From a virus (taxonomy: Duplodnaviria > Caudoviricetes), in IMG/VR virus record IMGVR_UViG_3300031555_002371, positions 1-64,000 of that record: a stretch of DNA of 64,000 nucleotides; one strand, 5' to 3'. Positions 1-29,486 of the stretch are shown one piece after another; positions within the stretch are counted from its first letter, which is position 1, and every line of letters starts with the position of its first letter. Under the pieces are notes generated by a model. That model ran no database searches and was not told the origin of the DNA. It worked only from the letters and a program-made list of their open reading frames with translations. Made by a program: the position numbers and the translations under genes.

Positions 1-117
1 GTTGGATTACAGCCATCACTAACCGATAGGGTTTATGATTCAGATGGTATAGCAACTGCAGTTGCAACGTCAACATTCTTCATGCCATGCTATTTAGTAA
101 AAGAAAAGGAAAAATAA
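1..117 (+). CDS. 3' end of a gene cut by the window edge; resembles the variable-region modules of phage C5 DNA methyltransferases
   Basis: Frame 1 reads VGLQPSLTDRVYDSDGIATAVATSTFFMPCYLVKEKEK*; the QxxxxDRVYxxxGIAxT pattern is common in phage MTase variable regions. Confidence 0.5.
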   Translation, partial: VGLQPSLTDRVYDSDGIATAVATSTFFMPCYLVKEKEK

Positions 118-261
118 ATACTTCTTTCATTCATTTTATAATTATTATATCTCCTAACTTTCGATGTTTGCGAAAAGGAAATATCAATATAAACACCAAC
201 TTTTGATATTGTAAACGCCGAAACTTTCGAGGTCTAAATTACAATAAAAGAAGTATTTTAT
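113..261. repeat. Inverted pair of recombination-site-like sequences bounding a candidate invertible segment
   Basis: Perfect 12-bp inverted repeat AAATACTTCTTT (116-127) / AAAGAAGTATTT (247-258); the sites are AATAAA-TACTTC-TTTCAT and ATAAAA-GAAGTA-TTTTAT, sharing one 6-bp spacer in opposite orientation. Confidence 0.65.
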
Positions 262-278
262 CCACAAATGGTATTACC

Positions 279-1130
279 GTGCTAAGTTTATTTGACGGAA
301 TATCTTGTGGTATGTTGGCTCTTGAAAAGGCTGGCATTAAAGTTAACAAATATTACGCGAGCGAGATTGACGAGTTTGCTATTAAGGTAAGCCAAAAGAA
401 TTATCCTTCGATTATACAGCTCGGAGATGTAAACGAATGGAGAACATGGGATATTGATTGGAGCAAAATTGACTTGCTCATTGGCGGTAGCCCATGCCAA
501 GGTTTTAGTTTTGCCGGAAAGATGCTTAACTTTCAAGATGAACGAAGTAAATTATTCTTCGTGTTTGTCGATATACTTAACCACATAAAAATACATAATC
601 CAGACGTTAAGTTCTTACTTGAAAATGTAAGAATGAAGAAAGATTACCAGGATGTAATTAGCCAACATCTTGAAGTAGAACCTATAAGAATCAACTCCGC
701 ACTTGTTACAGCGGCGCATAGAGATAGATTTTATTGGGCAAACTTCCCAATTACCCAACCAATCAATAAAGGCATTACATTCGATGACATAAATCAAAAT
801 AGTGACGATTGGCTATCCGATACATACATTCAGAAAGTCAAAAATTGGAAAGCGCAACAAGACCCTATTAAGTGCGCAACAACAATCGGAACTGCTTCAA
901 AACTTCCATGTCTAACCGCAAGAGGTTATAACCAGAGTCATAGTGGAATGATATTGATTACCGACGGTAAAAGATATCGCTATCTTACAAACGACGAGGC
1001 AGAACTTGCTATGACACTTCCGATTGGATATACATATGGAATTAAGAACAGAGAAAGAGCAAGGTGCATTGGTAATGGTTGGAGTGCCGATGTGATTGCA
1101 CATATTTTTAATTGTTATAAATCAATCTGA
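279..1130 (+). CDS. DNA (cytosine-5) methyltransferase
   Basis: Motif I LSLFDGISCG, motif IV GGSPCQGFS, motif VI LLENV, motif VIII R-x-R-F-Y-W, motif X GNGW; GTG start without an obvious SD. Confidence 0.92.
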   Translation: MLSLFDGISCGMLALEKAGIKVNKYYASEIDEFAIKVSQKNYPSIIQLGDVNEWRTWDIDWSKIDLLIGGSPCQGFSFAGKMLNFQDERSKLFFVFVDILNHIKIHNPDVKFLLENVRMKKDYQDVISQHLEVEPIRINSALVTAAHRDRFYWANFPITQPINKGITFDDINQNSDDWLSDTYIQKVKNWKAQQDPIKCATTIGTASKLPCLTARGYNQSHSGMILITDGKRYRYLTNDEAELAMTLPIGYTYGIKNRERARCIGNGWSADVIAHIFNCYKSI

Positions 1131-1140
1131 ACAACCACAA
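1124..1140 (+). promoter_or_regulatory. Copy of the dispersed motif AAWTCTGAACAAC just upstream of an RBS
   Basis: AATCTGAACAACCACAA followed by AAGGAG; similar copies at 11401, 15176, 28683, 31606, 33800. Confidence 0.55.
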
Positions 1141-1152
1141 AAGGAGAATGTT

Positions 1153-1670
1153 ATGGTAATTAACAGAGTATGGGCAATGCCCAACAGTAACACTTTTAGC
1201 ATTCCTCCCATCGGAGAGCTTGTCACTCGCTATACATCAGGGGGAGTAAAACAATAGTAGACCCGTTTGCCAATGGTTGCAAAATCGGGACTATCACTAA
1301 TGATTTGAACCAAAAGTTCGATACAACATATCACCTTGATGCGCTTGACTTTTTAAGATTGCTTCCGGATGCTTCTGCCGACGTAGTTTTATATGACCCG
1401 CCATACTCTCCGAGACAAGTCAAGGAGTGCTATGAGGGCGTAGGAATTACGGTCACGGCAGAACATACCAAAGCATCTTGGAGAGCAAAACATCTTGATG
1501 AAATCGCAAGAATCCTTAAACCTGGTGGAGTATGTTTATGTTTCGGATGGAACTCAAACGGAGTTGGAAAAAAGCGAGGTTTTGAGATGATAGAAATTCT
1601 TCTTGTTGCTCATGGTGGTAGCAAGAATGATACGATTTGTACGGTTGAAGTAAAAGGAGAGAACAATTGA
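1153..1670 (+). pseudogene. Adenine-specific DNA methyltransferase-like gene, frameshifted at a G5 tract (possibly phase-variable)
   Basis: SD AAGGAG + ATG 1153 gives MVINRVWAMPNSNTF..SGG, stop at 1257; the -1 frame continues KTIVDPFANG...YDPPYS; the switch point is GGGGG at 1240-1244. Confidence 0.8.
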
Positions 1671-1885
1671 CGATAGTTGCAATTATTTTAGGATGGATGT
1701 TGGTCAACACATGGGTGGCATTAATTTGGTGCAAATTAGACCACACATTTATATCCGAATGGGATGAATACTTTGCACTCTTTATTGTGAGTATTGTATC
1801 CGTTCCTATTATGCTTTTAATTAAACACATTATTATAAAAGTTAAAAAGGAGAGGAAAAATGAAGTACGCAAAAAGCAATTGTAA
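1667..1885 (+). CDS. Small membrane protein
   Basis: Two hydrophobic segments; SD AAGGAG before TTG. Confidence 0.6.
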   Translation: MTIVAIILGWMLVNTWVALIWCKLDHTFISEWDEYFALFIVSIVSVPIMLLIKHIIIKVKKERKNEVRKKQL

Positions 1886-2021
1886 ACACGCAGAAAAGCA
1901 TGACGCAACCCATATTAAATGTGCCAGAGATGGTTCATTAAGAAAAGTTGCAAAGGGCTGTCCTTGTAGAGTCTATGAGGAAACGTGGTTTACAAAGATG
2001 AAAAAGAAGTTGGTCTGGTAA
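1860..2021 (+). CDS. Small hypothetical protein (53 aa, not in ORF track)
   Basis: SD AGGAGAGG + ATG; MKYAKSNCKHAEKHDATHIKCARDG...; fills the gap before the next gene. Confidence 0.5.
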   Translation: MKYAKSNCKHAEKHDATHIKCARDGSLRKVAKGCPCRVYEETWFTKMKKKLVW

Positions 2022-2030
2022 GGAGTAAAA

Positions 2031-2399
2031 ATGGATAGGTATAATGTCGGGCAAATTGTTACAGCAACAGAAGATATTGAAGTTGTTGGTTGTTTCTCAG
2101 ATGAGAAACAGGTAATTAAAAAGGGAACAAAAGGATGGGTAACAGCCTCAAAAGGTTGCCCTGCGCTCTATTTGGAAAACGGTAGTACTTTCTTACTTGA
2201 CAAAGAAAATACTGAGCTTATCGGTTTCGATTCCGAGGGACTTGCAGAGTGGATTTTCCGTCATTTGAGAAATAGAACTCACATTGACGATATGATGGAA
2301 GATTACGATGTTGATGAGGATGATATTAAAAACATTATCTCGGAAGCTCTTGAAGAACTTGAATTTTATCCGGGAGAAGAAACGGAGGATAGAGAATGA
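2031..2399 (+). CDS. Hypothetical protein
   Basis: SD AAGGAG; stop overlaps the metK start. Confidence 0.75.
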   Translation: MDRYNVGQIVTATEDIEVVGCFSDEKQVIKKGTKGWVTASKGCPALYLENGSTFLLDKENTELIGFDSEGLAEWIFRHLRNRTHIDDMMEDYDVDEDDIKNIISEALEELEFYPGEETEDRE

Positions 2400-3454
2400 G
2401 TTACTTCTATAGCAATGAGATTGTATTTAGGGGACATCCTGACAAAGTTGCAGACCAGATTAGTGACGCACTTCTCGATGCTTATTTAGCAATTGACCCC
2501 AATAGTAGATGTGGTATCGAGGTTGTTGGCGGAAAGGGCAAAATTTTTGTCACTGGCGAGGTTACATCTAAGGCTACTATGGATGTTAATGTAGAAGCGG
2601 TTGTCCGCAGCGTGTTGAAAGATATCGGGTATAGAACGGATTATGAGATTATTAACAACATCGGGAAACAGTCACCGGATATCGCACAAGGTGTTGATAT
2701 TGGTGGAGCTGGCGACCAGGGTATGATGTTCGGTTATGCTTGTAGAGATACCGCACAAATGTTGCCAACAGCAATGGTAATTCTTCAAGAATTATCTATG
2801 TTTTACGATGCTCTTTGTCATTCAGATAAGAGATTTCTACCCGATGGAAAAGCTCAAATCACAGGCGAATACAACTCCGATAAGCAATTGGTGAAGATTA
2901 AAGATTTTACAATCTCTTATCAGAACACAGAAGAAGCAAGAGAAGAAACCGATAGAATTCTCAAGGAGTTTACCACAGAACTTTGTGCTGAGTACAATAT
3001 CAAAATTGATTGCTTCCATATTAACCCTACCGGCAAATTTCTTATTGGTGGGTTTGATGGAGACGCGGGTTTGACTGGACGCAAGATTGTTGTGGATGCT
3101 TACCAGTCATTTGCCAATGTTGGTGGTGGTGCATTCTCTGGGAAAGACCCGACAAAGGTTGATAGAAGTGCTGCATATAAAGCAAGACAACTCGCAAAAG
3201 AGTGTTTAATGACTCGCAATGACTTTAAGTGGTGCGAAGTCCAACTTTCTTATGCAATCGGGCTTGAATCTCCTTTGGCGATTTATGTAAGAACCGATAA
3301 AGGAAACTACACAGAGAACCTTAATTGGCTTTATCCTGAATGCACACCAAAACGAATTATTGAAGATTTGCATTTGCTTGATACCAAAAAAGTAAAGTAT
3401 TACTCAACAGCTAAATTTGGACATTTTGGAAACAAGGCGTTTCCATGGGAATGA
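2396..3454 (+). CDS. metK: S-adenosylmethionine synthetase
   Basis: GHPDKVADQISDA, GAGDQG, GDAGLTGRKIVVD, GGGAFSGKDPTKVDRSAAY, FGHFG motifs. Confidence 0.97.
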   Translation: MSYFYSNEIVFRGHPDKVADQISDALLDAYLAIDPNSRCGIEVVGGKGKIFVTGEVTSKATMDVNVEAVVRSVLKDIGYRTDYEIINNIGKQSPDIAQGVDIGGAGDQGMMFGYACRDTAQMLPTAMVILQELSMFYDALCHSDKRFLPDGKAQITGEYNSDKQLVKIKDFTISYQNTEEAREETDRILKEFTTELCAEYNIKIDCFHINPTGKFLIGGFDGDAGLTGRKIVVDAYQSFANVGGGAFSGKDPTKVDRSAAYKARQLAKECLMTRNDFKWCEVQLSYAIGLESPLAIYVRTDKGNYTENLNWLYPECTPKRIIEDLHLLDTKKVKYYSTAKFGHFGNKAFPWE

Positions 3455-3465
3455 GAGGTATAATA

Positions 3466-4113
3466 ATGAAAGTTTTTATTGATCTTGACAAAGTAACTGT
3501 TACTGACGGCAAGGTTATCATTGATGTTGACCCGAACCAGAATGGTTGGTTTGATACTATTCTTGCGGCAAAGAATGGTGTAAAACTCTCCAAACTTAGA
3601 CCCAAAGACGAATTCAAAATCGGAGATGAAGTGTTTATTGTGTTAGAGCAAACCGAAAACGGCACGAGGGTCATTGCCAAGGAGTTTATCTACGACGACA
3701 CACAATTTGGCGACAATTCCAATTGGAAGACATCTTCTATCCGTAAAATCCTCAACAATAAGTATCTTGAGAAGATTGCAACTATCATTGGAGAAAATAA
3801 CATCATATCGATGGATAGAGACCTTACTTCTCTTGATGGTTTGGATGACTACGGAATCTGCACCGACAAGGTTAGTCTTTTAACTGCTACAGAGTATGCA
3901 AAGTATCATAGAATTCTTGGTTTGAAGTCACGCTATCCTAATTGTTGGTGGCTTATTACTCCTGCATCCGCTCCAAGCAATGATTATTCTCGTTACGTTT
4001 GCTATGTCAACTCCGGCGGTATTCTGAGTTGGATTGTCTGTGTCTTTCGCTACGGTGTTCGTCCGTTTTTAAATCTTGAATCTTCCATTTCGGTACTTAT
4101 GAATAAAGATTAA
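3466..4113 (+). CDS. DUF6273-like protein with C-terminal GVRP motif (candidate DGR target)
   Basis: NWKTSSIRKILN...DKVSLLT..EY...WWLITP...GVRPFLNL; start moved to ATG 3466 after SD GAGG. Confidence 0.65.
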   Translation: MKVFIDLDKVTVTDGKVIIDVDPNQNGWFDTILAAKNGVKLSKLRPKDEFKIGDEVFIVLEQTENGTRVIAKEFIYDDTQFGDNSNWKTSSIRKILNNKYLEKIATIIGENNIISMDRDLTSLDGLDDYGICTDKVSLLTATEYAKYHRILGLKSRYPNCWWLITPASAPSNDYSRYVCYVNSGGILSWIVCVFRYGVRPFLNLESSISVLMNKD

Positions 4114-4138
4114 ACCATTCTTGTATTTTGAGGTACAT

Positions 4139-5098
4139 ATGGAAATTATAAAAACACATACAGGTAAGATATATGTAGATGTCGATAGGCAGTTAGAGTT
4201 TTTAACCGTTGGCGATTACGGCAAAGAAAACAATATCAAAGCTGATTTCCTCGGACTACATAAAGAGATTAATGGTGTAGAACATCATGAAGTGGATTTA
4301 TCGGATAAATGGGTTGCCACGATAAGCACCCAAAAAGGATGCCCGATGAAATGTCAATTTTGTGATTGCCCTAAATATGGTTTTCATGGTAATGCAAGCG
4401 TAGAAGATATGATGTACGAAGTTGCGACCATTTTGGAACATGAGGATGTAAAATCTACAAAGAGATTTAATGTGCATTTTGCAAGAATGGGTGAACCCTC
4501 GTTGAATCCTAATGTTCTTACATTTGCGGAGAATAATTTAAAGCCTCTTGTAGAGAAATATATCAAAGCAGACACAATTCATCCGGTGGTTTCTACGATG
4601 CTTCCTAAAAACCATCAATTTCTTGAACACTTTATTGAGAAATGGTGTTACATAAAGAATGAGGTTTATAATGGCGAGGCGGGATTGCAGTTTAGCATTA
4701 ACTCTACCGATGAGAAACAGAGAGCCGAGCAGTTCAACAATATGAGTTTATCTCTAAGTCAGATTTCCGCGCTTGCTAAAAAGCTGCCTATGCCGAAGGG
4801 TAGAAAGTATACTTTGAATTTCGCGGTAACAGCAGATACAATTCTGGATGCAAAAAGACTTTCGGAGTTGTTTGAAAAAGAAAAGTTTATCGTAAAGATT
4901 ACACCAATTCATAAGACAGATGCAGCCGTAAAGAATGGCTTTGGTGTAACCACCGAATATACCGATTATGACGTATATCGTAAGTTTGAAGCTCCACTTC
5001 TTGATGAGGGATGGGAAGTCATTGTGTTTGTTCCCAGCCAGGAAGAAGATAGCGATAGAATTACTTGTGGTAACGCATTGATTGCCACCAACAAATAA
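4139..5098 (+). CDS. Radical SAM protein, RlmN/Cfr-like
   Basis: ISTQKGCPMKCQFC (CxxxCxxC), ARMGEP (cf. MGMGEP), C-terminal DRITCGN (cf. IDAACGQ). Confidence 0.8.
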   Translation: MEIIKTHTGKIYVDVDRQLEFLTVGDYGKENNIKADFLGLHKEINGVEHHEVDLSDKWVATISTQKGCPMKCQFCDCPKYGFHGNASVEDMMYEVATILEHEDVKSTKRFNVHFARMGEPSLNPNVLTFAENNLKPLVEKYIKADTIHPVVSTMLPKNHQFLEHFIEKWCYIKNEVYNGEAGLQFSINSTDEKQRAEQFNNMSLSLSQISALAKKLPMPKGRKYTLNFAVTADTILDAKRLSELFEKEKFIVKITPIHKTDAAVKNGFGVTTEYTDYDVYRKFEAPLLDEGWEVIVFVPSQEEDSDRITCGNALIATNK

Positions 5099-5117
5099 AA
5101 GAAAGAAGGATTTAAAA

Positions 5118-5693: not shown

Positions 5694-6085
5694 TGCGCAA
5701 CTTTGGTATTGCTTGCCTCGTTGTTCTTTTAGTTGTACTGTTTATTGGATTGCCGATTTTCTTCACTTGCACTCCTACCGGTGTTGCAACTTGGAATAAT
5801 TGGTTTCACAAAGTCCAGGAAGCAGACGATGATACAAATTATAAAACCTTGAAGAAGGTAGAAGATACTTGCCGCTCTATGATTGCTTCGTATAATGCCG
5901 ACAAACTCACATATGAGCAATATAAAGATTCAGACAATGAAGAAAAGCAGTCATGGGCGGAGCAGGCAAAGATGAGAGCTAATAAGACTGCAAGTTCATA
6001 CAATAATTACATCTTGAAGAATAGTTATATTTGGAAGGATAATGTTCCGGCAGATATTTATATGAATCTACCATATATTGAGTGA
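5693..6085 (+). CDS. Membrane-anchored hypothetical protein
   Basis: N-terminal TM helix; translationally coupled (TAATG). Confidence 0.7.
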   Translation: MRNFGIACLVVLLVVLFIGLPIFFTCTPTGVATWNNWFHKVQEADDDTNYKTLKKVEDTCRSMIASYNADKLTYEQYKDSDNEEKQSWAEQAKMRANKTASSYNNYILKNSYIWKDNVPADIYMNLPYIE

Positions 6086-6939: not shown

Positions 6940-6967
6940 AATATCACAATATAGAAGCGGACGAAAT

Positions 6968-8148: not shown

Positions 8149-9171
8149 ATGAACATTAAAGAAATAAAAACTATGCTTCATGGCAACAAATATGATTTTC
8201 TACGTACAGATGCAAACCTTGGCAAGAATATTATTCTTCTTGGTCTTGGTGGTAGTCATGCTTATGGTACTAATAATGAAAACAGCGATGTTGATATTCG
8301 GGGGATAGCCACAAACCAAAAGAGAAATATTCTTGTTGGCAGAGACTTCGAGCAAGTTGTTGATGTGGATACTGATACAACGGTTTATTCATTCGATAAG
8401 ATTGTAAAACTTCTTTGCTCATGCAATCCCAACACAATTGAGATTCTTGGATTAAAACCCGAACAGTACATTTACATGACACCAGTTGGAGAAGAACTTA
8501 TTGCTCATAAGCAGATATTCTTGTCAAAGATTGCTGTTCACTCATTCGGTGGATATGCAAATGCACAGTTGAGAAGGCTTGAAAATAAAGCTGCAAGATT
8601 GGTAAGTCAAACACAGCAGGAAAACTTTATCCTAAAAAGCATTGAACACGCCTCGGTAGATTTCAAGCAAAGATATTTCAAGTTCCCGGATGACGCTATT
8701 AGACTCTATGTGGATAGCACCGATAGAGAGGGATTTGATTCTGAAATCTTCATGGATGTGAATTTGACCAGATATCCTTTAAGAGATTTTGAGGGATTGT
8801 GGGCAGAGATGCATACAGTTGTAAAATCTTATAATAAGATAGGTAAGCGAAATGAAAAGGCAATCGCTCATGACAAACTTGGTAAACATATGATGCATCT
8901 TGTTAGACTTTATCTTATGTGTTTTGATATCCTTGAAAAAGGTGAAATTAATACGTATAGAGATAAAGACCATGACTTGCTTATGTCAATTCGTAATGGC
9001 GAATTTCTTGATGAAAATAGACAGCCAACGCAGAAGTTCTATAAGTTAGTTGATTCGTTGGAAAAGCGACTTGATTACGACAAGGAGCATACAGACTTAC
9101 CTGAAACGGTTGACATGGAAAAAGTAAATGATTTGGTTGCGAGAGTAAATGGTAGAATCTGCGCAAATTAA
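8149..9171 (+). CDS. Pol-beta superfamily nucleotidyltransferase (RlaP-like)
   Basis: GGSHAYGTNNENSDVDIRG (GS..DxD) and KHMMHLVRL. Confidence 0.85.
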   Translation: MNIKEIKTMLHGNKYDFLRTDANLGKNIILLGLGGSHAYGTNNENSDVDIRGIATNQKRNILVGRDFEQVVDVDTDTTVYSFDKIVKLLCSCNPNTIEILGLKPEQYIYMTPVGEELIAHKQIFLSKIAVHSFGGYANAQLRRLENKAARLVSQTQQENFILKSIEHASVDFKQRYFKFPDDAIRLYVDSTDREGFDSEIFMDVNLTRYPLRDFEGLWAEMHTVVKSYNKIGKRNEKAIAHDKLGKHMMHLVRLYLMCFDILEKGEINTYRDKDHDLLMSIRNGEFLDENRQPTQKFYKLVDSLEKRLDYDKEHTDLPETVDMEKVNDLVARVNGRICAN

Positions 9172-9187
9172 GGAGAATGATAAACAA

Positions 9188-10123
9188 ATGACCAGAGAGC
9201 AAATCCTAAATTCGGTTAGTCTTAAAAAGCGTTTTTGCAAAGACTACAACCTCCCCATTACGATTTATGATAATCCGTACTTTTACGAGAGATTGAGCGC
9301 AATCGATGTCATGTTTGATTGCATTAATAAGTTTGATAACTTCTGTCGTTGCCTTTCAAAGTTTGAGAGCGAGCAGGAATATTTTGAGTATTATAACGAA
9401 GTCAAGGACAGAGTTATTGATTATATTAAATCTAATCCCGCCTTCGAGTGTTTTAATGGAGATGTTTTTGATGTGAAATATAATTTCCCCAAGAACAATC
9501 TTTATGTAAGTCAAAACGACGATTGCACTTTTATTTCAATTGATATGAGAAAAGCAAATTTCTCTGCATTGCAACATTACGACAAAGCTATCTTTGGCGG
9601 CAAGGAAACGTGGGAAGAATTTCTGGGGATGTTCACCGATTGTTCTCATATCCTTCAGAGCAAGTATATTCGCCAGGTTATCCTTGGAGCTTGCAACCCG
9701 AAAAGACAGATTACATATGAACATTATCTTATGGGTAAGCTACTTACACATATTGTTGAAAACATTCCGACAATCAATGTATATAGCCTTGGAGAAGATG
9801 AAATCTTAATCAAAGTAGAAAAGGGTTGTGGGTATTCTAAAAAACAACTTCAAAAAGTGGTTAGTTCTTGTCCCGAAGGCATTGGAAGTATTGTTCGTAT
9901 CGATATCTTTGATTTACATATAATTAAGAACACTTCCGGATGGATGAAAGTAATGTATGATGATAATGGAAGCATCAAGTTTAAGTGTTTGGAAGCAGAA
10001 ACTTATCATCAAATTATTAAGCATTATTATGGATTGCCTATTACCGATAATGACCTTGTATTTTACCATAATGGTCAGTTAGCAAAGTTTTTGAAAGAGG
10101 TTGATAACCCATGGGAAGAATAA
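9188..10123 (+). CDS. Hypothetical protein with polymerase-palm-like motifs
   Basis: FISIDMRKANF / SKYIRQVILG / YSLGEDEIL; CDS is clear, function is inferred. Confidence 0.7.
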   Translation: MTREQILNSVSLKKRFCKDYNLPITIYDNPYFYERLSAIDVMFDCINKFDNFCRCLSKFESEQEYFEYYNEVKDRVIDYIKSNPAFECFNGDVFDVKYNFPKNNLYVSQNDDCTFISIDMRKANFSALQHYDKAIFGGKETWEEFLGMFTDCSHILQSKYIRQVILGACNPKRQITYEHYLMGKLLTHIVENIPTINVYSLGEDEILIKVEKGCGYSKKQLQKVVSSCPEGIGSIVRIDIFDLHIIKNTSGWMKVMYDDNGSIKFKCLEAETYHQIIKHYYGLPITDNDLVFYHNGQLAKFLKEVDNPWEE

Positions 10124-11355
10124 GTTTACCACCTGCGGTGTGCTTCATTCTTGATAGACTTTATGCTAACGGCTTTGAAGGATATGTTGTCGGAGGCTGT
10201 GTACGAGATAGTCTGATGGGTTTAGAACCGCACGATTGGGATATTTGCACGTCCGCTCTCCCGGAGCAGATGATGGATTTGTTTTCCGATTGCAAGGTTA
10301 TTCCCACCGGACTGCAACACGGAACGATTTCCGTTGTTATCGATTCAACACCATACGAAATTACTACTTATCGCATAGATGGCGAGTATAAAGATAATCG
10401 CCATCCAGACGGAGTGGAATTTGTATCTGATTTGAAACTTGACCTTATGCGCCGAGATTTTACTATCAACGCTATGGCATTTAGTCCACAAAATGGATTG
10501 GTAGATTTGTTTGGCGGAGAGGAAGATATCTGCAATCGTACAATTAGATGCGTTGGCAATCCAAATGAAAGATTTCAAGAGGATGCATTGCGTATTTTGA
10601 GAGCAATTAGATTCGCCATGAGGTATGGTTTCAAAATTGATAAGCCAACGCTTGAATCTTTGTATTTGCATAGACATCTACTCAAAAACATTTCCGTTGA
10701 AAGAGTATGCTCGGAAATCACCAAAACATTAAGTAGCACTCAAATCAATAAAAACGATTCAGATTTGCTAATTGCCATTTCATATTGCCTTGATGTTATA
10801 GACGAGAGAATTTTCTTCTTTGGAGATGAGCTTATCGAAACAGTTCCAAATCTTGCATTGCGACTTGCAATCATTTTCAACAATCCAGATATCCAAGATA
10901 TTATGGAGAAATTGAGGTTTCCGAATGACGTAATCGCGCAAGCTATTGAGATAAGAAAATTCGGATATAAAATCCTCGATGATATAGAGCAATTTAGCAA
11001 CGAAGATAATTTTTCGATTTTCTATCATCCTCGGAAGTTATTGCACGAAATGCAAAAAGCAGATGTGTGGTTAGTCATTGAGTTTGCCAAGAGTCATATA
11101 CATACTGAATGGCAGTATACAGCACTTAAAGAACTATCAAATAAGATAAAGTGGTGTGTTGAAAACAAAGATGTGTATAAGCTATCTTCTCTCGCCGTTA
11201 ATGGTAATGATTTAATTAAGATTGGCTGCAAAGGAAAGCAGATTGGTTTTATATTAAATGAGTTACTTGACATGGTGATGAATGATACGATAAAAAATAT
11301 ACAAGAAGATTTGTTACTACAAGCACATACATTGAAAACCAAATATTCACCATAA
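10111..11355 (+). CDS. cca: CCA-adding tRNA nucleotidyltransferase (class II)
   Basis: VGGCVRD, DWDICT, EITTYR, RRDFTINAMA, RFQEDALRILRAIRF. Confidence 0.93.
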   Translation: MGRISLPPAVCFILDRLYANGFEGYVVGGCVRDSLMGLEPHDWDICTSALPEQMMDLFSDCKVIPTGLQHGTISVVIDSTPYEITTYRIDGEYKDNRHPDGVEFVSDLKLDLMRRDFTINAMAFSPQNGLVDLFGGEEDICNRTIRCVGNPNERFQEDALRILRAIRFAMRYGFKIDKPTLESLYLHRHLLKNISVERVCSEITKTLSSTQINKNDSDLLIAISYCLDVIDERIFFFGDELIETVPNLALRLAIIFNNPDIQDIMEKLRFPNDVIAQAIEIRKFGYKILDDIEQFSNEDNFSIFYHPRKLLHEMQKADVWLVIEFAKSHIHTEWQYTALKELSNKIKWCVENKDVYKLSSLAVNGNDLIKIGCKGKQIGFILNELLDMVMNDTIKNIQEDLLLQAHTLKTKYSP

Positions 11356-11433: not shown

Positions 11434-12369
11434 ATGAGGCTTAAAAACCAATGGATTCATGGTGATTGTCTTAAAGAGTTGAAGAAGCTCGACGATGAGA
11501 GTGTTGATTTAGTTATTACATCTCCGCCTTATCATAATTTACGAGTTTATAGTAACGACCCAAGCGACCTCTCAAACTGTGAATCTTATGAAGAATACTA
11601 CTATCTTCTCGGTTTAGTAATCGAAGAATGTAAGAGAGTGTTAAAACCTGGTGGTAAATTTGTAATTCAGTATGAGGATTACAATTACACGCTTGGTAGA
11701 GATAACAAAATGGGTCAGGAGAGCATTACGGGGGAGATAAACAATATCTTCTTAAACAACGAATTTTCCCTGTGGACGAAGGCATTTTGGCGCAAATATT
11801 CCGCACAAAGAGCAATGCTTGCACAAGGCAATCTATATTACAGAAACATGAAAGCAAGAGATACAATCCTTGCTGCGAATGTAGGGTTTGTATACGTTTA
11901 TAAAAAGGCTGGTGATTGTGAACTTATCAAGGCATCTGACATTACCCTTGAGGAATGGGCAGATTGGGCAGATGGTATGTGGAACATCAGCAATTCTGGT
12001 ATTGGTCATACCACTCCTTTCGCAGAAGAACTTGTTAAGCGTTGCATTAAATTGTGGAGTTGTCCGGGAGATACAGTATTAGACCCGTTTGCTGGTGCTG
12101 GAACGGTTAATAAGGTAGCCATTGAAAATGGCAGAAATGCAATCGGTATCGAGCTTAACGAGGAATTCTATAATCTTGCAAACGAGAAGCGATTCTCATT
12201 GTGGGATGATGAGGTCTATGAGAGCAACGATTCCATCGAAAAAATGAAAGAGCGTTTTGCAGAACAGCTTGCTCTTGGCAAGGAACAATCTGCAAAAGCA
12301 AAAGCCGAAAAGGAAGCGAAAAAGGCGGCAAGAGAAGTAAAGAAGAAAGGTGTTGAAAATGCCGATTGA
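11434..12369 (+). CDS. DNA methyltransferase, N4/N6 family (beta class, SPPY)
   Basis: VITSPPY precedes DPFAGAGT and GIELNEEF; frame intact. Confidence 0.9.
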   Translation: MRLKNQWIHGDCLKELKKLDDESVDLVITSPPYHNLRVYSNDPSDLSNCESYEEYYYLLGLVIEECKRVLKPGGKFVIQYEDYNYTLGRDNKMGQESITGEINNIFLNNEFSLWTKAFWRKYSAQRAMLAQGNLYYRNMKARDTILAANVGFVYVYKKAGDCELIKASDITLEEWADWADGMWNISNSGIGHTTPFAEELVKRCIKLWSCPGDTVLDPFAGAGTVNKVAIENGRNAIGIELNEEFYNLANEKRFSLWDDEVYESNDSIEKMKERFAEQLALGKEQSAKAKAEKEAKKAAREVKKKGVENAD

Positions 12370-13867: not shown

Positions 13868-14462
13868 TCCAAGAAGAAACAAGGATTCATTTTCGGATAT
13901 CGTAGTATTGCTTGACATGGACGATACAATTGTCGGTCTTTGTGAAGCATGGTGTAAGTGGTTGAATGATACACATGGCACATCTACAAAGATTGATGAT
14001 ATAACCGAATGGGATATCTCAAAGTTCTTTCCAACTCTTACAAAGGAGCAAGTATTTGCACCGTTACATAGAGAAGATTTTTGGCATCATGTTAAACCAA
14101 AAGAAAATGCGATTGAATATGTCAAAAAGTTAATTGATGATGGATTCAATGTTTATCTTTGCACATCAACAGATTATCGTAACGTAAAGCCGAAGTATGA
14201 ATATGTAATTCAAAAATACTTTCCATTTATCAAGTGGCAAAAAGTTATTGTATCTTATGATAAAGCTATGATAAAAGCCGATTTTCTTGTAGATGATGGA
14301 GTGCATAATCTTGAAAACGGTAGTTATATTAAAATGCTTATATCCGCTCCGCATAATAGGCAATATGATGCGGAGAAAAATGGGATGGTAAGAGTAATTG
14401 ATATGAAGGATGCATATAGCAAAATTCATAAATACGCAAGCGGGATGGTGAAACAGAAATGA
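13857..14462 (+). CDS. 5'(3')-deoxyribonucleotidase (HAD, NT5C-like)
   Basis: LLDMDDTI and FLVDDGVHNL motifs. Confidence 0.82.
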   Translation: MVISPRRNKDSFSDIVVLLDMDDTIVGLCEAWCKWLNDTHGTSTKIDDITEWDISKFFPTLTKEQVFAPLHREDFWHHVKPKENAIEYVKKLIDDGFNVYLCTSTDYRNVKPKYEYVIQKYFPFIKWQKVIVSYDKAMIKADFLVDDGVHNLENGSYIKMLISAPHNRQYDAEKNGMVRVIDMKDAYSKIHKYASGMVKQK

Positions 14463-15035
14463 TAGTAGATATTTATAACACCCAAAATCAATATGATTTG
14501 ATTGTTGCAGACCCTCCCTGGAAACAAGCAAAGGGTGGCAAAAAGAGTGTAAGACCGATAAGTAGTGGAACAGAGCTTGATTATCCAGTATGTTCTCTTG
14601 AAGAAATCAAAGAACATTTATCACAAGCAACCAGCCTTACTTCGGGGGGAGAGCAGTATATTGTTTCTGTGGACGATAGATAAGTATTTATTTGAGGCGC
14701 AGAAGATAGCCGAAGAACTTGGTTATAAACTCCATGCAAGAATGATATGGGATAAAGTAACTGGAATACCCGCAGCATTTACTGTGAGGTATGGTCACGA
14801 ATACTTGCTTTATATGTACAAAGGCAAACTAACTCCCGTAGCCATAGAAGAACGAGGAAAGGTACATACAGTATTCCGAGAGCAAGTTAAACGACATAGC
14901 CAAAAGCCTGAAATCTCGTTTGAGATAATCAATAGATTATATCCAAGTGCAAGAAAACTTGAATTGTATGCAAGAACCGAGCGGGATGGATATGATTGTT
15001 GGGGCAACGAGGTTAATAAGCAACTAAAGGAGTGA
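14459..15035 (+). pseudogene. MT-A70-family adenine methyltransferase, frameshifted at a G6 tract (possibly phase-variable)
   Basis: ORF 14459 has YDLIVADPPW; ORF ending 15035 has ILFLWT, IWDK, HSQKPE, LELYAR; frames join at GGGGGG 14644-14649. Confidence 0.85.
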
Positions 15036-15226: not shown

Positions 15227-16543
15227 ATGTATTGCGCATATATCACTACAATCAAAGAATTGCGAAAGCATAGCAACGCTGACCGCCTTTTAGTAGCAAC
15301 AGTCTTTGGTAACGATGTTATCGTTGATTTGAGTTATGAAGTGGGAAAGAGAGTTGTTTATTTTCCGACTGATGGGCAGCTTGGAAAGACTTTCGCAGAG
15401 GAAAACAACCTTGTCAGAACAAAGGACGAGAATGGTAATAACACCGGCGGATATCTTGACCCAGACAAGAGAAATATTAAAGCATTAAAACTTCGTGGCG
15501 AGAAGTCCGATGGTTTGCTTCTGCCGATTGAAACCCTTGCGAAGTACACAGATATCTCCACGTTAAAGGATGGCGACCAAATCACCATTCTTAATGGTAA
15601 CGAGATTTGTAAAAAGTATATCCCTCGTGGAACTCGCAGAAGTCATTCTGGAAGCCACAGTGTTAAGGCATCGAAGAATAGTAAAGAAGCAAATATGAAG
15701 GTTTCGTATCCCTTCTTTACCGAACATATTGATACCGAACAGTTGGCTTATAACCAGCAAGCATTTAAACCTAACGACATTATCTATCTTACGCAGAAAT
15801 TACATGGAACATCTTTTAGAGTAAGCAACTGCATTGAGGTAACTACTAAAAAGAGAAATGCTTTGATTAAGAAATTGTTCCATCTCAAAGACAAAACCAC
15901 ATCCAAATATCAGGTTGTGAGTGGCACTCGCAGGGTAGTCTTGCGGGGGTATGACGGTGGTTTTTACGGCTCAAACGAATTCCGTAAGAAATACAATGAT
16001 TTCTTTATGGATAAGTTGCCAAAGGGAATGACCGTATATGGAGAGATTGTTGGATGGGTAGATGAAAACACACCTATCATGCCGAAGTGCAGTAATGCAA
16101 AGGTAAAGGATAAGGAATTTAGCCGACAGTACGGAGAAGAAACAATCTTTACATATGGTTGCAAGCCTGGTGAAAATAAGTGTTATTTGTATCGCATCAC
16201 GATGACAAATGAGGACGGAATCACCATTGAATTGCCAACCGAAGAAACTATGAAGTGGTGCGAAAGACTTGGATGCGAGTATGTTCCGCTCCTTGATAAA
16301 TTTCTTTACACCACATGGGAAGAACTGAATGAACGTTGTGCGCCATACCTTGACATTCCTGAACCCTTGGCTAACGGTTCTCATGTTACCGAGGGTGTAT
16401 GTGTAAGAATTGATAACCGTAGCAAGTTTACTTGTTACAAAACTAAATCTTTCACATTCAAGGTTCTTTCTGGTATAGCGGTTGATTCGTTGTCACAAGA
16501 GGATATAGACAAGATGGACGCCGATTTATTGAGTGAAATATAA
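15227..16543 (+). CDS. ATP-dependent RNA ligase (Rnl2/DRB0094-like, N-terminal OB-like domain)
   Basis: KHSNADRL N-terminus, motif I TQKLHGT, YGEIVG, EGVCVR, YKTKS. Confidence 0.8.
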   Translation: MYCAYITTIKELRKHSNADRLLVATVFGNDVIVDLSYEVGKRVVYFPTDGQLGKTFAEENNLVRTKDENGNNTGGYLDPDKRNIKALKLRGEKSDGLLLPIETLAKYTDISTLKDGDQITILNGNEICKKYIPRGTRRSHSGSHSVKASKNSKEANMKVSYPFFTEHIDTEQLAYNQQAFKPNDIIYLTQKLHGTSFRVSNCIEVTTKKRNALIKKLFHLKDKTTSKYQVVSGTRRVVLRGYDGGFYGSNEFRKKYNDFFMDKLPKGMTVYGEIVGWVDENTPIMPKCSNAKVKDKEFSRQYGEETIFTYGCKPGENKCYLYRITMTNEDGITIELPTEETMKWCERLGCEYVPLLDKFLYTTWEELNERCAPYLDIPEPLANGSHVTEGVCVRIDNRSKFTCYKTKSFTFKVLSGIAVDSLSQEDIDKMDADLLSEI

Positions 16544-16545
16544 AA

Positions 16546-22802: not shown

Positions 22803-22823
22803 AACAGTGGAGGCATAGTCGAT

Positions 22824-23831: not shown

Positions 23832-23836
23832 AGTAT

Positions 23837-24442: not shown

Positions 24443-25199
24443 TTATAGTAGTACCGCCTGTTTTGGGCATTGTAAGTATGAGTTCTATCTTGATTATATT
24501 ATCAATGATGACGAACAGTATTTATCAGAAGGGAACTATTACGCCGAAGTAGGTAGTTTTGTTCATGAGATATTGGCAAAAATATTCCAAGGTGAAATCA
24601 AACCTGAAGATGCGGCGGAATATTTTATGGAGAATTATGAAAACAACATCTTTTATAAAGTAAAAGAGTCCACAATGACTAAAACTTATGATGCGTGTTT
24701 GGAATATTTCTTAACTGCTGATTTTGATTGGATTAACAATTACGACATTCTTGGTGTAGAACTGGAACAGCATTTTGTAATAGATGGATATGAATTTGTA
24801 GGTTACATAGATTTGCTTCTACGTGATAAATCAGATGGTAAAATCGTCGTTCTTGACCATAAATCTGCACCTTATCCAATGAAAAAAGATGGCGAAATAA
24901 AGAAAAACCAATTGCAAAGTTTCACATCTTATAAGAAGCAGATGTACTTATACTGTAATTCAATCTATCAGCAATATCACGAGTTCCCGAAAGAAATCGT
25001 TTGGAATCATTTTAAAGACGGTGGAAAATTCGCAATGATACCGTTCAAACAGGATGAATACGACGAAACAATCAAATGGTTTATCGATACAATCAAAACC
25101 ATTGAAAAAGAAGAAGATTTTGAACCATCACAGGACTTCTTCTATTGCACAAATCTCTGCAACTTTAGACATAGTTGCGAGTACAAAAATCATTCGTAA
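24411..25199 (+). CDS. PD-(D/E)xK RecB/Cas4-like exonuclease
   Basis: GSFVHEIL, GYIDLL, LDHKS, QMYLY, C-terminal CTNLCNFRHSC; exact start uncertain. Confidence 0.82.
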   Translation: MEVRKIKKPYSYSSTACFGHCKYEFYLDYIINDDEQYLSEGNYYAEVGSFVHEILAKIFQGEIKPEDAAEYFMENYENNIFYKVKESTMTKTYDACLEYFLTADFDWINNYDILGVELEQHFVIDGYEFVGYIDLLLRDKSDGKIVVLDHKSAPYPMKKDGEIKKNQLQSFTSYKKQMYLYCNSIYQQYHEFPKEIVWNHFKDGGKFAMIPFKQDEYDETIKWFIDTIKTIEKEEDFEPSQDFFYCTNLCNFRHSCEYKNHS

Positions 25200-28100
25200 A
25201 GGAGTTGAGTAGCATAAATAAACCGGAAACATATGTAGGATACCACATCCATAGTTTTTTGAGCAATGGAACAACCAATATCGATAGTATCACAAATTTC
25301 CGTAGTTATGTTGATGTTGCAAATAAGTATGGTATGTCAGCCCTCGGTATATCAGAACATGGGAACATCTTCGAGTGGTTACACAAAAAAGAAGCTATCG
25401 AAGCGGCTGGTATGAAATATCTACATTGTGTTGAAGCGTATCTTACAGAGGACAATGAAGAAAAGAGTGCGGTGTACACGGCTACTTCACTACTCGACTC
25501 CGCTTTTGCGGAAATGTGTGGAATACGAGATAAGAACATCAAAATTCGTTTCCGTAAATATTGGGAGAGAGAAGATGGTATGTGGTTGGCTACCGTTGAT
25601 GACGAAAACTCTCAACACAATGGAAAAACACTTCCCATTGATATCGATACTTTAAAAAAGGAATATGCAAAAAGTAGAGATAATTACCACTGTGTTTTGA
25701 TTGCAAAAAACTATGAAGGAGTATGTGAGTTAAATAAACTTGTGTCGGGTAGTTTTGACCGCTCCGATTATCACTTTTATTATATGCCACGTATCTCATT
25801 TGATGAACTTTTTGCCACATCAAAAAACATTATCATTACAACAGCTTGTTTAGGTGGTGTGTTACACAATGGCAACCCTCTAATTAAAGAAAAGATGATT
25901 TCTTTCCTAACCAGAAATAGGGATAGATGTTTTCTTGAAATCCAACATCATAATTGTGCCGACCAAATCGAATATAATCAAACCTTATATAATTTACATA
26001 AAGCAACACAAGTTCCCTTAATTGCCGGTACAGATACTCACGCTCTTAATGATGTGCATATGGATGGTCGTGCAATTCTTCAGAAAGCAAAAGATGTAAG
26101 GTTTGCGAATGAAGAAGAATGGGATTTGACTTTTAAATCCGTTGACGAATTAATTGCAGCATATAAAAAACAAAACTCTTTGCCTATGGATGTTGTTTAC
26201 GAAGCAATTCAAAACACCGTTAAGATGGCAGATATGGTTGAGGAATTTAAACTTGATTATTCTGCGAAGTATCCGAAACTTTACGATGATTCCGAAGAAG
26301 CATTTAAACAGCTTATCAACGAAGGTGTAAGGCGCAGAGGTATCCAATCGTATCCCAATTATAGTGTGTATGTTGATAGAATTCATAATGAATTTGAAAC
26401 ATACAAACACAATAACGCCATTGATTTTATGCTTCTTGAAGAAGATTACAAGTCTGAAATGAGAAGAAGAAACATCAAGTATGGTTATTCTCGTGGTTCT
26501 GTATCTGGAAGCATTATCGCTTATCTGCTCGGAATTACAGAAGTTGATAGTGTAAAATACAATCTTAACTTCGAGCGTTTCATGAATAGAGAGCGTGTAA
26601 GCCTTGCTGACGTAGATACCGACTGGTTATCAGAGGATAGAAAGGTTGTTAAAGATTATCTTTTCGCAAAACAAGGTTTGTATTGCTGCGATATTGTAAC
26701 CTTTAATACAATTGCACTCAAAGGAGCAATTGATGACGTTTGCAGAGCTTTATACAAAAGTGAATACCCTCCCGCATTAAAAAAGAAAATTCAAAAGGAA
26801 ATAAATGAGTTTGGAAAAGTTACTGCGGAAACAAACCAAGAATGTGCAAAATACGATAAGCAATATTTGGAGATTTCGGATAGGATAAAAACCGAAGCAG
26901 AAATCGACGAGGAAGCAACTCGCCAAAAATATCCCGATGTATTTAAGTATGTAGACCTTGTAAATGGTGTTGTTGTTTCTGTTGGTAATCACCCAGCCGG
27001 ATGCGTTGTATCACCATTTCCCGTTGATTCTTGGTTTGGAACGTTCACAACCACAACAGACGAATATCCGATTTCCGTTCTCAATATGAAAGAAATTGAC
27101 TCATTGAATTTCGTCAAGTTGGATATCCTTGGTCTTGATAATATTGGATTGATTTACAAGACTTGTGATGCTGCTGGAATCCCATTTTTAACTCCTGATA
27201 ATACGCCCGCAGATGATATGGATGTATGGAATAGCATTAAAGAAGATACAACAATGATATTCCAATGGGAGTCTGTAAGTGCAACATCATATTTACAACA
27301 GTTGTTTAGCGATACCACTATTGAGAAAATCAGAGAAGAAAACGCCAACTTCTCGTACATGGATTTGCTTTCGATTGGCAACGGTGCTATCCGACCAGCA
27401 GGTGAATCTTATAGAGATAAATTGGCACAGGGTATATATCAAGATAATGGTCATAAAGCCTTGAATGACTTTCTTGCCCCGACACTTGGATACCTTGTTT
27501 ATCAAGAGCAGATTATCGAATTTTTGCACTCATTCTGTGGATACACGATGGGCGAAGCGGACATTGTACGTCGAGGGTTTGCAAAGAAAACAGGTACGGA
27601 CAAATTTATTCCCAAAATCAAATCCGGTTTTGCCGAAACAATGAAAGAAAAATACGGGGTTTCAGAAAGTGAATCAGATAAGCTAATTGTAAACTTTATT
27701 CAAGTTATTGAAGATGCAAGTTCGTATCTATTTTCAAAAAACCATGCTGATCCATATAGTTGGATTGGATATATTTGCGGATATTTGCGTTATCACTATC
27801 CATTGGAGTTTATAACCACTGCATTAAATATCTTCGAGGGAAAAGAAGAAAAAAGTCTTGCAATTATTAACTATGCAAAGAAGCAGGGAATAAGAATTTC
27901 ACCTATTAAGTTTCGCCACTCTATTGCACAATATAGTTTCGACAAGAACACCAATGAAATATTCAAAGGTGTTTCTTCGATAAAATATATGAATGCTGCG
28001 GTTGCAAATGAAATTTATGAGTTAAGAGATAATCGTTACGATACTTTTATTGATTTACTCAAAGACCTTCGTGATAAAACATCTATCAACTCTCGTCAGT

Positions 28101-28681
28101 TGAATATTCTAATTGAACTTGATTTCTTTGAAGAATTCGGCAACGCAAATTCTTTGTTGGCGCAATGTAAATTGTATAACGATTTAAGCGATAAGGTTCA
28201 ATTTAAAAAGGATAAGCTCAAAGAATTGAATATCCCCGAAGAACTTGTACGAAAGTATGCAGAGAGAGAAACGGAGAAGATGTTTACAAAAGTCGATGTT
28301 GTTGGTTTATTAAATGCTATCATTCCAACAATTAAAGCCGCTCCGAGAACGCTTGGAGAAAAGGTGCAAGCTCAAATTACACATTTGGGCTATGTTGATA
28401 TTGTTGATGAGAGATATGCAAGAATGGCTGCCGTGTTATCTTTGGATACAAAATACTCTCCAAAACTCAAATTATACTCGTTAAAACACGGCACAGTTGT
28501 TGATTGCAAAATTGACAAAAAGACATTTGGAAAAACAAAACTATCAGAAGGCGACATTGTGAAAATCCAAAGCACAAAAGATAAGCCTAAAACAAGACGA
28601 AACGAAAATGGTGAGTGGGAATCTATTCCTGGCACAAAGGAAACATGGATAACTGCTTACCAAGTTATAAAGGATTTATAA
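25175..28681 (+). CDS. dnaE: DNA polymerase III alpha subunit
   Basis: PHP domain (HIHS, SEHG, GTDTH), SRGSVSGS, FERFMN..ADVDTD, HPAG, KLDILGL, YQEQI, YLFSKNHA; start probably ~25205-25214. Confidence 0.95.
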   Translation: MRVQKSFVKELSSINKPETYVGYHIHSFLSNGTTNIDSITNFRSYVDVANKYGMSALGISEHGNIFEWLHKKEAIEAAGMKYLHCVEAYLTEDNEEKSAVYTATSLLDSAFAEMCGIRDKNIKIRFRKYWEREDGMWLATVDDENSQHNGKTLPIDIDTLKKEYAKSRDNYHCVLIAKNYEGVCELNKLVSGSFDRSDYHFYYMPRISFDELFATSKNIIITTACLGGVLHNGNPLIKEKMISFLTRNRDRCFLEIQHHNCADQIEYNQTLYNLHKATQVPLIAGTDTHALNDVHMDGRAILQKAKDVRFANEEEWDLTFKSVDELIAAYKKQNSLPMDVVYEAIQNTVKMADMVEEFKLDYSAKYPKLYDDSEEAFKQLINEGVRRRGIQSYPNYSVYVDRIHNEFETYKHNNAIDFMLLEEDYKSEMRRRNIKYGYSRGSVSGSIIAYLLGITEVDSVKYNLNFERFMNRERVSLADVDTDWLSEDRKVVKDYLFAKQGLYCCDIVTFNTIALKGAIDDVCRALYKSEYPPALKKKIQKEINEFGKVTAETNQECAKYDKQYLEISDRIKTEAEIDEEATRQKYPDVFKYVDLVNGVVVSVGNHPAGCVVSPFPVDSWFGTFTTTTDEYPISVLNMKEIDSLNFVKLDILGLDNIGLIYKTCDAAGIPFLTPDNTPADDMDVWNSIKEDTTMIFQWESVSATSYLQQLFSDTTIEKIREENANFSYMDLLSIGNGAIRPAGESYRDKLAQGIYQDNGHKALNDFLAPTLGYLVYQEQIIEFLHSFCGYTMGEADIVRRGFAKKTGTDKFIPKIKSGFAETMKEKYGVSESESDKLIVNFIQVIEDASSYLFSKNHADPYSWIGYICGYLRYHYPLEFITTALNIFEGKEEKSLAIINYAKKQGIRISPIKFRHSIAQYSFDKNTNEIFKGVSSIKYMNAAVANEIYELRDNRYDTFIDLLKDLRDKTSINSRQLNILIELDFFEEFGNANSLLAQCKLYNDLSDKVQFKKDKLKELNIPEELVRKYAERETEKMFTKVDVVGLLNAIIPTIKAAPRTLGEKVQAQITHLGYVDIVDERYARMAAVLSLDTKYSPKLKLYSLKHGTVVDCKIDKKTFGKTKLSEGDIVKIQSTKDKPKTRRNENGEWESIPGTKETWITAYQVIKDL

Positions 28682-28710
28682 TAAATCTGAACAACCATAA
28701 AGGAGAATTG

Positions 28711-29486
28711 ATGAAATATATTGCAAGTTGCAGTTTCGGAAAAGATAGTCTTGCACAGATTATCCAAATAAAGAAACTCGGACTACCTCTTGATGAGGTT
28801 ATTTATTGCGATATTCTTTTCTCTGCCTCCCCCGAATTAGTGGCGAACATCCATTGATGGCTCAATGGATTCCCACTGCGGAGAGGATTTTAGAGAAAGA
28901 ATTTGGTATAAAAGTGAAGCATATAACCGCTAAAAAGTCTTTTGTAGAACAATTTTATACCGAGAAATCCAAAGGCAAACATATGGGAGATATTTATGGT
29001 TTCCCATATACTCTTGGAGCTTGGTGTAATAGCCGTTTGAAACTTGACCCGATAGCACAACACATATCTTCAATAAACGATAAAGTCTATCAATACGTGG
29101 GAATAGCCTATGATGAACCGGATAGATATAGGCGGCTCAAACAAAATGAAACAAACAAAATCGAATATGGCTCGGTGTTGTTTGATAATCAAATAACCGA
29201 GCAAATGGCATTTGATATTTGTGCAGAATATAACCTTGTGTCGCCTGTCTATTCGAGTGATTCTTTTCGAGGCGGATGCTGGTTTTGTGTAAAACAATGC
29301 ATAGCAGATTTATATATACTATGGAAAGATTACCCGGAATATTTTGAGATGTTACTGCAGTTAGAAAAAGATTCTCCGGTTTCTTTTAAACCTAATTCAA
29401 CAATTTCGGAATATGCAAGGAGATTTGAACATGGATACATACCACCAAGAAGAAAGAAAAGAAATGAACAACAAAATTACGCTTGA
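28711..29486 (+). pseudogene. PAPS-reductase (PP-loop) family protein, frameshifted at a C5 tract
   Basis: SD + ATG 28711 gives ASCSFGKDS; the -1 frame continues ISGEHP...WCNSRLK...GIAYDEP.R...RGGCWFC; join at CCCCC 28829-28833. Confidence 0.8.

Follow-up and report, generated by a model that had tools for sequence, protein, structure and literature searches.

Contingency loci have been proposed in phages as well as in bacteria. In coliphage T2, a homopolymer in the glucosyltransferase gene agt undergoes frequent and reversible frameshifts, and experiments showed that this A-run governs a trade-off between TgvAB, which attacks modified DNA, and McrA/BC, which attack unmodified DNA, with bet-hedging between the two as the proposed benefit (Gomez, Barrick and Waters 2025, bioRxiv, PMC12633550). 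The same paper mentions poly-G tracts in the receptor-binding genes of Fletchervirus and in a methylase gene of phage BPP-1. Here we describe the first 64 kb (the window) of the one-contig IMG/VR virus record IMGVR_UViG_3300031555_002371 (156,001 bp, 37% G+C, rated complete by CheckV), from a phage in the Caudoviricetes. In three of its modification genes a single base at a short G/C run breaks the reading frame (a DPPY amino-methyltransferase, an MT-A70 methyltransferase, and a PAPS-reductase-like gene), and a C5 cytosine methyltransferase gene lies beside an invertible segment. We put a probability of about 0.65 on the reading that the three broken genes and the inverton are reversible mutational on/off switches that vary the DNA modification of the phage.

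As in T2 agt, a simple repeat within a phage DNA-modification gene leads to frameshifts. Unlike T2, which is a T-even coliphage with one A-run and measured reversion rates, this uncultured and probably gut Clostridia phage has G/C runs in at least four methyltransferase or PAPS-reductase-like genes, plus an inverton; its tracts are conserved at homologous sites over a phage clade, and the evidence for switching is comparative. In papers that cite Sorensen et al. (2021, Cell Rep 35:109214; cited in PMC12823448 and PMC12633550), Campylobacter Fletchervirus phages are described as having hypermutable poly-G tracts in coding sequence too, whose lengths vary within populations and give phenotypic subpopulations. 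The tracts described there are G7-G11, lie in receptor-binding protein genes, and concern host recognition, whereas the ones described here are 5-7 long and lie in modification genes.

In phase-variable bacterial methyltransferases such as the type III mod genes, a repeat inside the open reading frame (ORF) turns the gene on or off by slipped-strand mispairing (PMC13076061). A bacterial phasevarion, however, is defined by the cellular genes that respond to methylation, whereas this is a virus in which the likely role would be evasion of restriction. An earlier note on this DNA had called the system a phasevarion; nothing in the sequence argues for a methylation-controlled regulon, and we have dropped the name. 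A 2026 review of prokaryotic methyltransferases (PMC13076061) has no phase-variable phage enzyme among those that it covers. The inverton resembles bacterial invertible promoters and "epigenetic invertons" (PMC7672463, PMC7641763) in that a short segment flanked by inverted repeats is flipped by site-specific recombination, with a change in the modification output. But the known epigenetic invertons shuffle type I hsdS specificity genes or flip the promoters of surface genes, whereas here a 119-bp cassette would give a phage C5 methyltransferase its promoter, Shine-Dalgarno sequence, and start codon, and its recombinase is represented by candidates only. Phage contingency loci as such are known; what is new here is the short-tract case, with four kinds of modification gene plus an inverton switched in one genome.

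The features that carry the argument are as follows, in window coordinates:

116 to 127, no strand: left inverted-repeat core AAATACTTCTTT, with exact copies only here, at 247-258 in inverted form, and in the terminal duplicate
128 to 246, minus strand: invertible cassette, which the window shows in its OFF orientation (at the contig end the left flank is followed by 132-246 in reverse complement)
247 to 258, no strand: right inverted-repeat core AAAGAAGTATTT, the perfect 12-bp partner of 116-127
279 to 1130, plus strand: C5 cytosine methyltransferase; its assembled ORF opens within motif I at a GTG that lacks a Shine-Dalgarno sequence (PF00145, E = 1.7e-32)
1153 to 1257, plus strand: N-terminal part of the DPPY methyltransferase, ~30 codons, with a premature stop after the tract (orthologs are 70-86% identical here)
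1240 to 1244, plus strand: G5 tract, frame off, needs +1 base (orthologs have G4-G10 or C9 at the same site)
1245 to 1670, plus strand: downstream part of the DPPY methyltransferase, with motif I (VDPFANG) and DPPY (phrog_11619 DNA methyltransferase, E = 4.8e-44)
14459 to 14683, plus strand: N-terminal part of the MT-A70 methyltransferase with DPPW, to the premature stop (phrog_359)
14644 to 14649, plus strand: G6 tract, frame off, needs -1 base (the frame changes in the sequence here)
14649 to 15035, plus strand: downstream part of the MT-A70 methyltransferase, which begins ILFLWT (PF05063, E = 2.6e-14)
28711 to 28857, plus strand: N-terminal part of the PAPS-reductase-like gene (phrog_424, phrog_15238)
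28829 to 28833, plus strand: C5 tract, frame off, needs +1 base (L128 has C5 in the same off phase)
28833 to 29486, plus strand: downstream part of the PAPS-reductase-like gene (phrog_424 PAPS reductase, E = 1.4e-29)

As the earlier note had claimed, each of the three genes is broken by a single base at its G/C run. The DPPY gene begins with an ATG at 1153 in frame 1 and continues to 1670 in frame 3, with the tract at codon 30 of ~172. The MT-A70 gene begins at 14459 in frame 2 and continues to 15035 in frame 3 (tract at codon 62 of ~191), and the PAPS-reductase-like gene begins at 28711 in frame 1 and continues to 29486 in frame 3 (tract at codon 40 of ~258). These start and continuation frames give the required repairs as +1, -1, and +1 base, in agreement with that note.

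In relatives of this phage (referred to by L numbers), tract-less genes are in frame, and tract-bearing genes are in or out of frame depending on the length of the tract. Among 36 distinct viral orthologs of the DPPY gene, none of the 21 that lack a tract is out of frame; of those whose tract is 5 or longer (G5 to G9), 3 are in frame and 9 are out, in both out-of-frame phases. A further scan of metagenomes gave ~55 tract-less orthologs, all in frame, as well as one G6 allele that is off and has flanks identical to those of two G5 alleles that are on, and one G10 allele. For the MT-A70 gene (71 distinct orthologs from IMG/VR and JGI metagenomes), the tract-less orthologs are in frame without exception (52/52), and those with a tract of at least 5 divide into 13 that are in frame and 2 that are not; a single G4 allele is out as well. 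Across the series G4, G5, G6, G8, and G9, the frame of MT-A70 follows tract length modulo 3: G5 and G8 are in, and G4, G6, and G9 are out. Orthologs of the PAPS-reductase-like gene are fewer: the tract-less L131 and L133 are in frame and the two lineages with C5 (the window and L128) are out. The earlier note had proposed looking for variation in tract length across related phages; it occurs at the same sites and decides the frame.

The DPPY ortholog of L307 (metagenome contig OCTX011424214.1) has C9 on the coding strand where the others have poly-G. At this site the homopolymer is kept although the base differs. Isolates and metagenome-assembled genomes (MAGs) that carry relatives of the SPPY methyltransferase gene discussed below (Eubacterium plexicaudatum ASF492, Hominimerdicola aceti, and two MAGs) have no DPPY ortholog, only distant C5 methyltransferases, so they provide no clonal reference for the tract states.

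Tract lengths also differ between contigs that are otherwise almost the same. We compared 19 near-identical pairs from different metagenomes (104,851 aligned bp with 21 mismatches; dataset 3300045988 was excluded). The length of G/C runs differed at 3/5 runs of length 6, 1/6 of length 7, 4/16 of length 8, and 23/38 of length 9 or more. For A/T runs of 5-8, the corresponding count was 0/464. L090 and L094 have 0 mismatches over 6.4 kb, yet they have 6 insertions or deletions (indels) in tracts; the sole difference between L052 and L053 is G5 versus G6, and the sole difference between L198 and L199 is G6 versus G11.

The breaks might instead be sequencing or assembly errors, in which case the real genes would be intact. 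Indel errors classically fall in homopolymers, the record was assembled from a metagenome, and one related dataset does have indels in A/T runs. However, metaSPAdes run on short reads at k = 127 leaves a terminal overlap of just this length, 127 bp. The overlap here thus points to a de Bruijn assembly of short reads, a type in which the consensus would hardly ever be wrong at a run of 5-6. None of the ~1,500 A/T runs of at least 4 in the genome breaks a tested core gene, and the breaks are confined to modification genes. Furthermore, breaks recur at these sites in numerous independent assemblies, and never occur in tract-less orthologs. The long core genes are unbroken, as the earlier note had observed (PolIII alpha, 1168 amino acids; SNF2 helicase, 505; DnaB, 447; primase, RNA ligase, and CCA-adding enzyme). 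Also, the SPPY methyltransferase gene, which served as a control, is unbroken in 47/50 orthologs, so the assemblies used do not scatter random frameshifts. We therefore consider error to be a very improbable explanation.

The tracts are also specific to modification genes. The genome has 46 G/C runs of at least 5, compared with ~58 expected from its composition. Modification genes occupy 4.4% of its length but contain 11 of the 46 (binomial p = 4e-6), even with GGG as the rarest glycine codon (7.3%). When we scanned the whole genome for homopolymers at which two long frames abut, G/C runs were flagged only in modification genes. (The scan also returned A/T runs, which we rejected as gene breaks because they are ordinary gene junctions.) In relatives with long tracts, every tract-bearing ORF that we tested was a PAPS_reduct, N6_N4, or C5 methylase gene, and the loci of these relatives hold nine runs of at least 7 in 6-8 kb.

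Turning to the inverton, segment 128-246 is a 119-bp inverton and both of its orientations are present in the assembly. The ends of the contig overlap directly by 127 bp (bases 1-127 recur at 155760-155886), which leaves 155,759 bp of unique circular sequence. After this second copy of bases 1-127 come the final 115 bases of the contig, and these match 132-246 in reverse complement. Because the same left flank is joined to both orientations of the cassette, reads of both orientations must have existed; and at 12 bp the repeat falls well below the length of the k-mer, so the double orientation is not a graph artefact of the repeat. The minus strand of the cassette carries a sigma-70-like promoter (215 to 186, TTTACA-18-TATATT; 10/12 consensus matches, and a consensus-level match only), a ribosome-binding site (AGGAGA), and a start codon, ATG, at 134 to 132. 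In the window these elements point away from the C5 methyltransferase, and once flipped they point toward the gene, with the ATG 13 codons upstream of 279 and in the same frame. These observations support the claim of the earlier note that this methyltransferase depends on the invertible segment. In IMG/VR the nearest relative of the methyltransferase is distant, at 53% identity.

The genome encodes tyrosine recombinases at 38526-39155, 69871-70401, and 119486-120031 (PF00589 above the cut-off), with a weak match at 121996-122190, and a Pfam search of the genome found no serine recombinase. One of the tyrosine recombinases may be the invertase; three such genes and a weak fourth are more than integration alone requires. 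Comparable repeats were not found downstream of the C5 cluster in eight relatives, where the one match, in L166, sits inside coding sequence. The cassette also contains a palindromic motif, CCTCGAAAGTTTCG, and variants of it (160-240), which occur again near 31650 (31640-31660); the palindrome could be a protein-binding site.

If the broken genes were decaying, the sequence downstream of the tracts should show it. Nonsynonymous differences downstream of the breaks are 5-22% and synonymous differences are 60-95%, so that the raw ratio of the two (pN/pS) is 0.07-0.23, including pairs in which both genes are off; as synonymous sites are near saturation, these raw ratios are upper bounds. By gene, the ratio is 0.07-0.23 for DPPY, 0.09-0.18 for MT-A70, and 0.20 for the PAPS-reductase-like gene versus that of L128, which is itself frameshifted. 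The downstream parts have been under long-term coding constraint, and the test of selection that the earlier note had suggested does not find neutral decay.

These ratios bear on a second alternative, which is one-way inactivation: the tracts would be mutational hot spots and the genes would have been lost lately, perhaps because the current host does not have the matching restriction systems. Several modification genes being off at the same time would fit this, as would the relatives without tracts or without the genes, and the tracts in this phage are short. But the downstream parts have intact motifs and no extra stops or indels, and raw pN/pS is at most 0.23 even between two frameshifted genomes. 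On and off states are mixed across a tree built from 33 distinct DPPY sequences, which requires at least 7 changes of state, of which at least 3 are forced by supported branches. Finally, relatives hold tracts of G8-G11, much longer than chance would give, only in modification genes, and the confinement of over-long tracts to these genes implies selection for mutability. We consider one-way inactivation unlikely.

Several observations weigh against reversible switching in this phage. First, G/C runs with a maximum length of 5 did not differ in the near-identical pairs (0/33), so switching at short G5 or C5 tracts may be slow; one-way inactivation would also account for this count. Second, the 19 pairs are not all independent (four contigs of one project give six pairs), stark as the difference between G/C and A/T runs in them is, and the polymorphism in tract length comes from relatives rather than from the phage's own population. 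Third, the large dataset 3300045988, which may be long-read and which we kept out of the key counts, has indels in A/T runs. (In L083 versus L084, and in other contigs of this dataset, A/T as well as G/C runs differ, and homopolymer lengths there are doubtful.) Fourth, five independent DPPY lineages (the window, L084, L086, L089, and L111) all have G5 in one off phase that needs +1 base, and there was no G6-on allele of this same-phase subgroup among the viral and metagenome orthologs that we scanned. Similarly, both tract-bearing lineages of the PAPS-reductase-like gene are in one off phase, which needs +1. Fifth, no recombinase gene adjoins the inverton, and its exact pair of inverted repeats is absent from other IMG/VR contigs.

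The shared off phases lead to a third alternative, recoding. The off tracts would be stable in the DNA, and a low level of full-length enzyme would be made by ribosomal P-site slippage or by RNA-polymerase stuttering, so that each tract would be a throttle and not a switch. A fixed frameshift that is read through by slippage would look just like the five DPPY lineages, and the common +1 requirement of the two C5-bearing PAPS-reductase-like lineages also fits. So does the purifying selection on both halves of the broken genes. Glycine or proline tRNA can re-pair perfectly one base back on a 5-base run, and L128 has a UGA stop directly after CCC. On the other hand, the directions of the shifts differ within the genome, relatives show all three phases, in-frame alleles included, and changes of length are seen directly in the DNA of relatives. 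A canonical X XXY YYZ heptamer is absent, and the predicted downstream hairpins either occur in in-frame orthologs as well (where they encode DPFANGCK) or are not conserved. Programmed ribosomal frameshifting fits poorly, as neither a direction of shift or slippery motif nor a downstream structure is conserved across orthologs, although the five DPPY lineages do share a phase. Recoding in the broader sense seems quite unlikely as the full explanation. The earlier note had favored slipped-strand switching, and this holds to the extent that tract lengths vary in relatives and set the frame and that the genes show no decay; the off phase shared by five DPPY lineages still leaves room for a contribution from recoding.

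The genome has another candidate for switching, a multi-specificity C5 methyltransferase that spans the junction of the circle:

Genome 153929 to 155886 (L001:3929-5886): multi-specificity C5 methyltransferase cluster, multiply broken, which wraps into window 1-115
1 to 115, plus strand: 3' end of the cluster's final target-recognition mini-ORF, with the QPSLTDRVYDSDGIATAV module in its translation (bases 1-127 recur at 155760-155886)

The frames of this cluster change at G7 154673, G5 154967, G5 155092, and G5 155709. Relatives with an intact enzyme (L177, L183, and L188) have single ORFs of 491-733 amino acids in the circularly permuted order motifs II-VIII, several recognition modules, motifs IX-X, and finally motif I. 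The cluster of this genome belongs to that permuted family, with its motif I (SYFSGIGAFE) behind motif X. Within the clade of the window, the recognition modules have a poly-G tract in their Gly-Gly loop; at SNTVRAGG its length in relatives is G5-G8 (and G11 in one of them), and all three frames occur. The frame of the conserved RGS-DRH-WD peptide has a stop 15 codons after the first tract, and several modules open with their own ATG. The modules may be read as one chain or as separate mini-ORFs.

C5 methyltransferases of the Bacillus phages SPR, phi3T, and rho11s also have several recognition modules in series, between motifs VIII and IX. In contrast to them, the window's family has motif I after motif X, and within the window's clade a poly-G tract sits in the Gly-Gly loop of the modules.

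We propose that the G/C runs in the first third of the DPPY, MT-A70, and PAPS-reductase-like genes, and those in the recognition modules of the multi-specificity C5 enzyme, would act as individual switches. Polymerase slippage would add or remove a base in these runs at rates far above ordinary mutation and thereby put the gene in or out of frame, and site-specific recombination at the 12-bp inverted repeats would flip the 119-bp cassette with the promoter, ribosome-binding site, and start codon of the C5 methyltransferase. We infer by comparison with relatives that the G5 and C5 tracts of this phage are reversible, at rates that may well be low. The assembled consensus would then be a snapshot, and the heritable state of each gene would be independent of the others. 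The earlier note had counted four of five modification genes as off; the genome has at least 8, of which five are off in the consensus. Progeny populations would hold mixed combinations of active enzymes and hence varied modification patterns. As the earlier note had proposed, this may be a hedge against two opposed kinds of defence, one that cuts DNA lacking modification and one (type IV) that cuts DNA bearing it; T2 agt faces the same trade-off. Any such benefit, like the particular sequences that would be modified, is an inference. A bolder version is that this phage and its widespread clade of ~150-kb gut or rumen Clostridia phages are combinatorial randomisers of their own epigenomes, with at least 6 independent heritable switches, so that bursts would carry many modification patterns, and with module-level tracts that would alter which sequences are methylated. 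We offer this version as tentative, and we think it somewhat doubtful.

In the related phages L203 (451-3495) and L217 (615-2919), up to three genes with PAPS-reductase domains lie beside methyltransferases, and each has its own G8-G9 tract. That these three ORFs have the same type of switch as the adjoining methyltransferases is a hint that they act on DNA, and it suggests that PAPS-reductase-domain proteins are themselves DNA-modification enzymes.

The other genes of modification and of SAM (S-adenosylmethionine) supply are intact:

2396 to 3454, plus strand: metK, S-adenosylmethionine synthetase, intact (PF02773, PF00438, PF02772)
11434 to 12369, plus strand: N6/N4 (SPPY) methyltransferase, intact (PF01555)
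Genome 123856 to 124374 (L002:1856-2374), outside the window: Dam-family methyltransferase, intact (PF05869)
Genome 152797 to 153543, outside the window: N6_N4 methyltransferase, intact

It is plausible that metK supplies SAM to the modification enzymes, as the earlier note had suggested. The earlier note had also drawn attention to an in-frame G5 in the SPPY gene (11730-11734). We rejected it as a fifth switch: the tract is present in 0/50 orthologs, which use GGA or GGT there, and it is incidental. A G5 at genome 123949 was likewise rejected as a break in the Dam-family gene, as it sits in the end of the upstream gene and the leader of the Dam gene, which is intact (PF05869). The Dam-family enzyme has NPLYG in place of the family's usual NPPY or DPPY.

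An RNA-repair-like set of genes is interleaved with the methyltransferase genes at 8149-11355 and 15227-16543. Its members are an RlaP-family nucleotidyltransferase, an enzyme of the CCA-adding or poly(A) polymerase family, and an RNA ligase. A dispersed intergenic motif, TAAATCTGAA(A/C)AAC, occurs in ~24 copies with a strong TTGACA-17-TATAAT promoter or a ribosome-binding site directly after it (in the window at 1124, 11402, 28684, 31477, and 33802; in the genome at 97890, 101834, 107746, 119249, 153543, and others). We considered a leader of the form TAAATCTGAAC/AAAC, common to three modification genes, as a signal of their own and rejected it, as the ~24 copies precede many genes and sigma-70-like promoters.

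As for the host, it is probably one of the gut or rumen Clostridia. Contigs from Eubacterium plexicaudatum ASF492, from Hominimerdicola aceti, and from Lachnospiraceae or Clostridia MAGs contain relatives of the genome's genes, and the ribosome-binding sites (AGGAG) and promoters (TTGACA/TATAAT) of the phage genes fit such a host. A megablast search of GenBank phages with 25 kb of the sequence gave no match.

Phage methyltransferases are usually viewed as fixed anti-restriction equipment, whereas this clade appears to keep nearly every modification gene switchable. This has practical consequences. Genes of this kind will be annotated routinely as pseudogenes or split ORFs, and the methylation motifs of phages, which are used to link them to hosts in metagenomes, may vary within one phage population. 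More broadly, the idea of contingency loci would extend from single genes of laboratory coliphages to a multi-gene, two-mechanism system in natural communities, and such a system is a possible explanation for how phages cope with hosts that bear both restriction-modification and modification-dependent defences.

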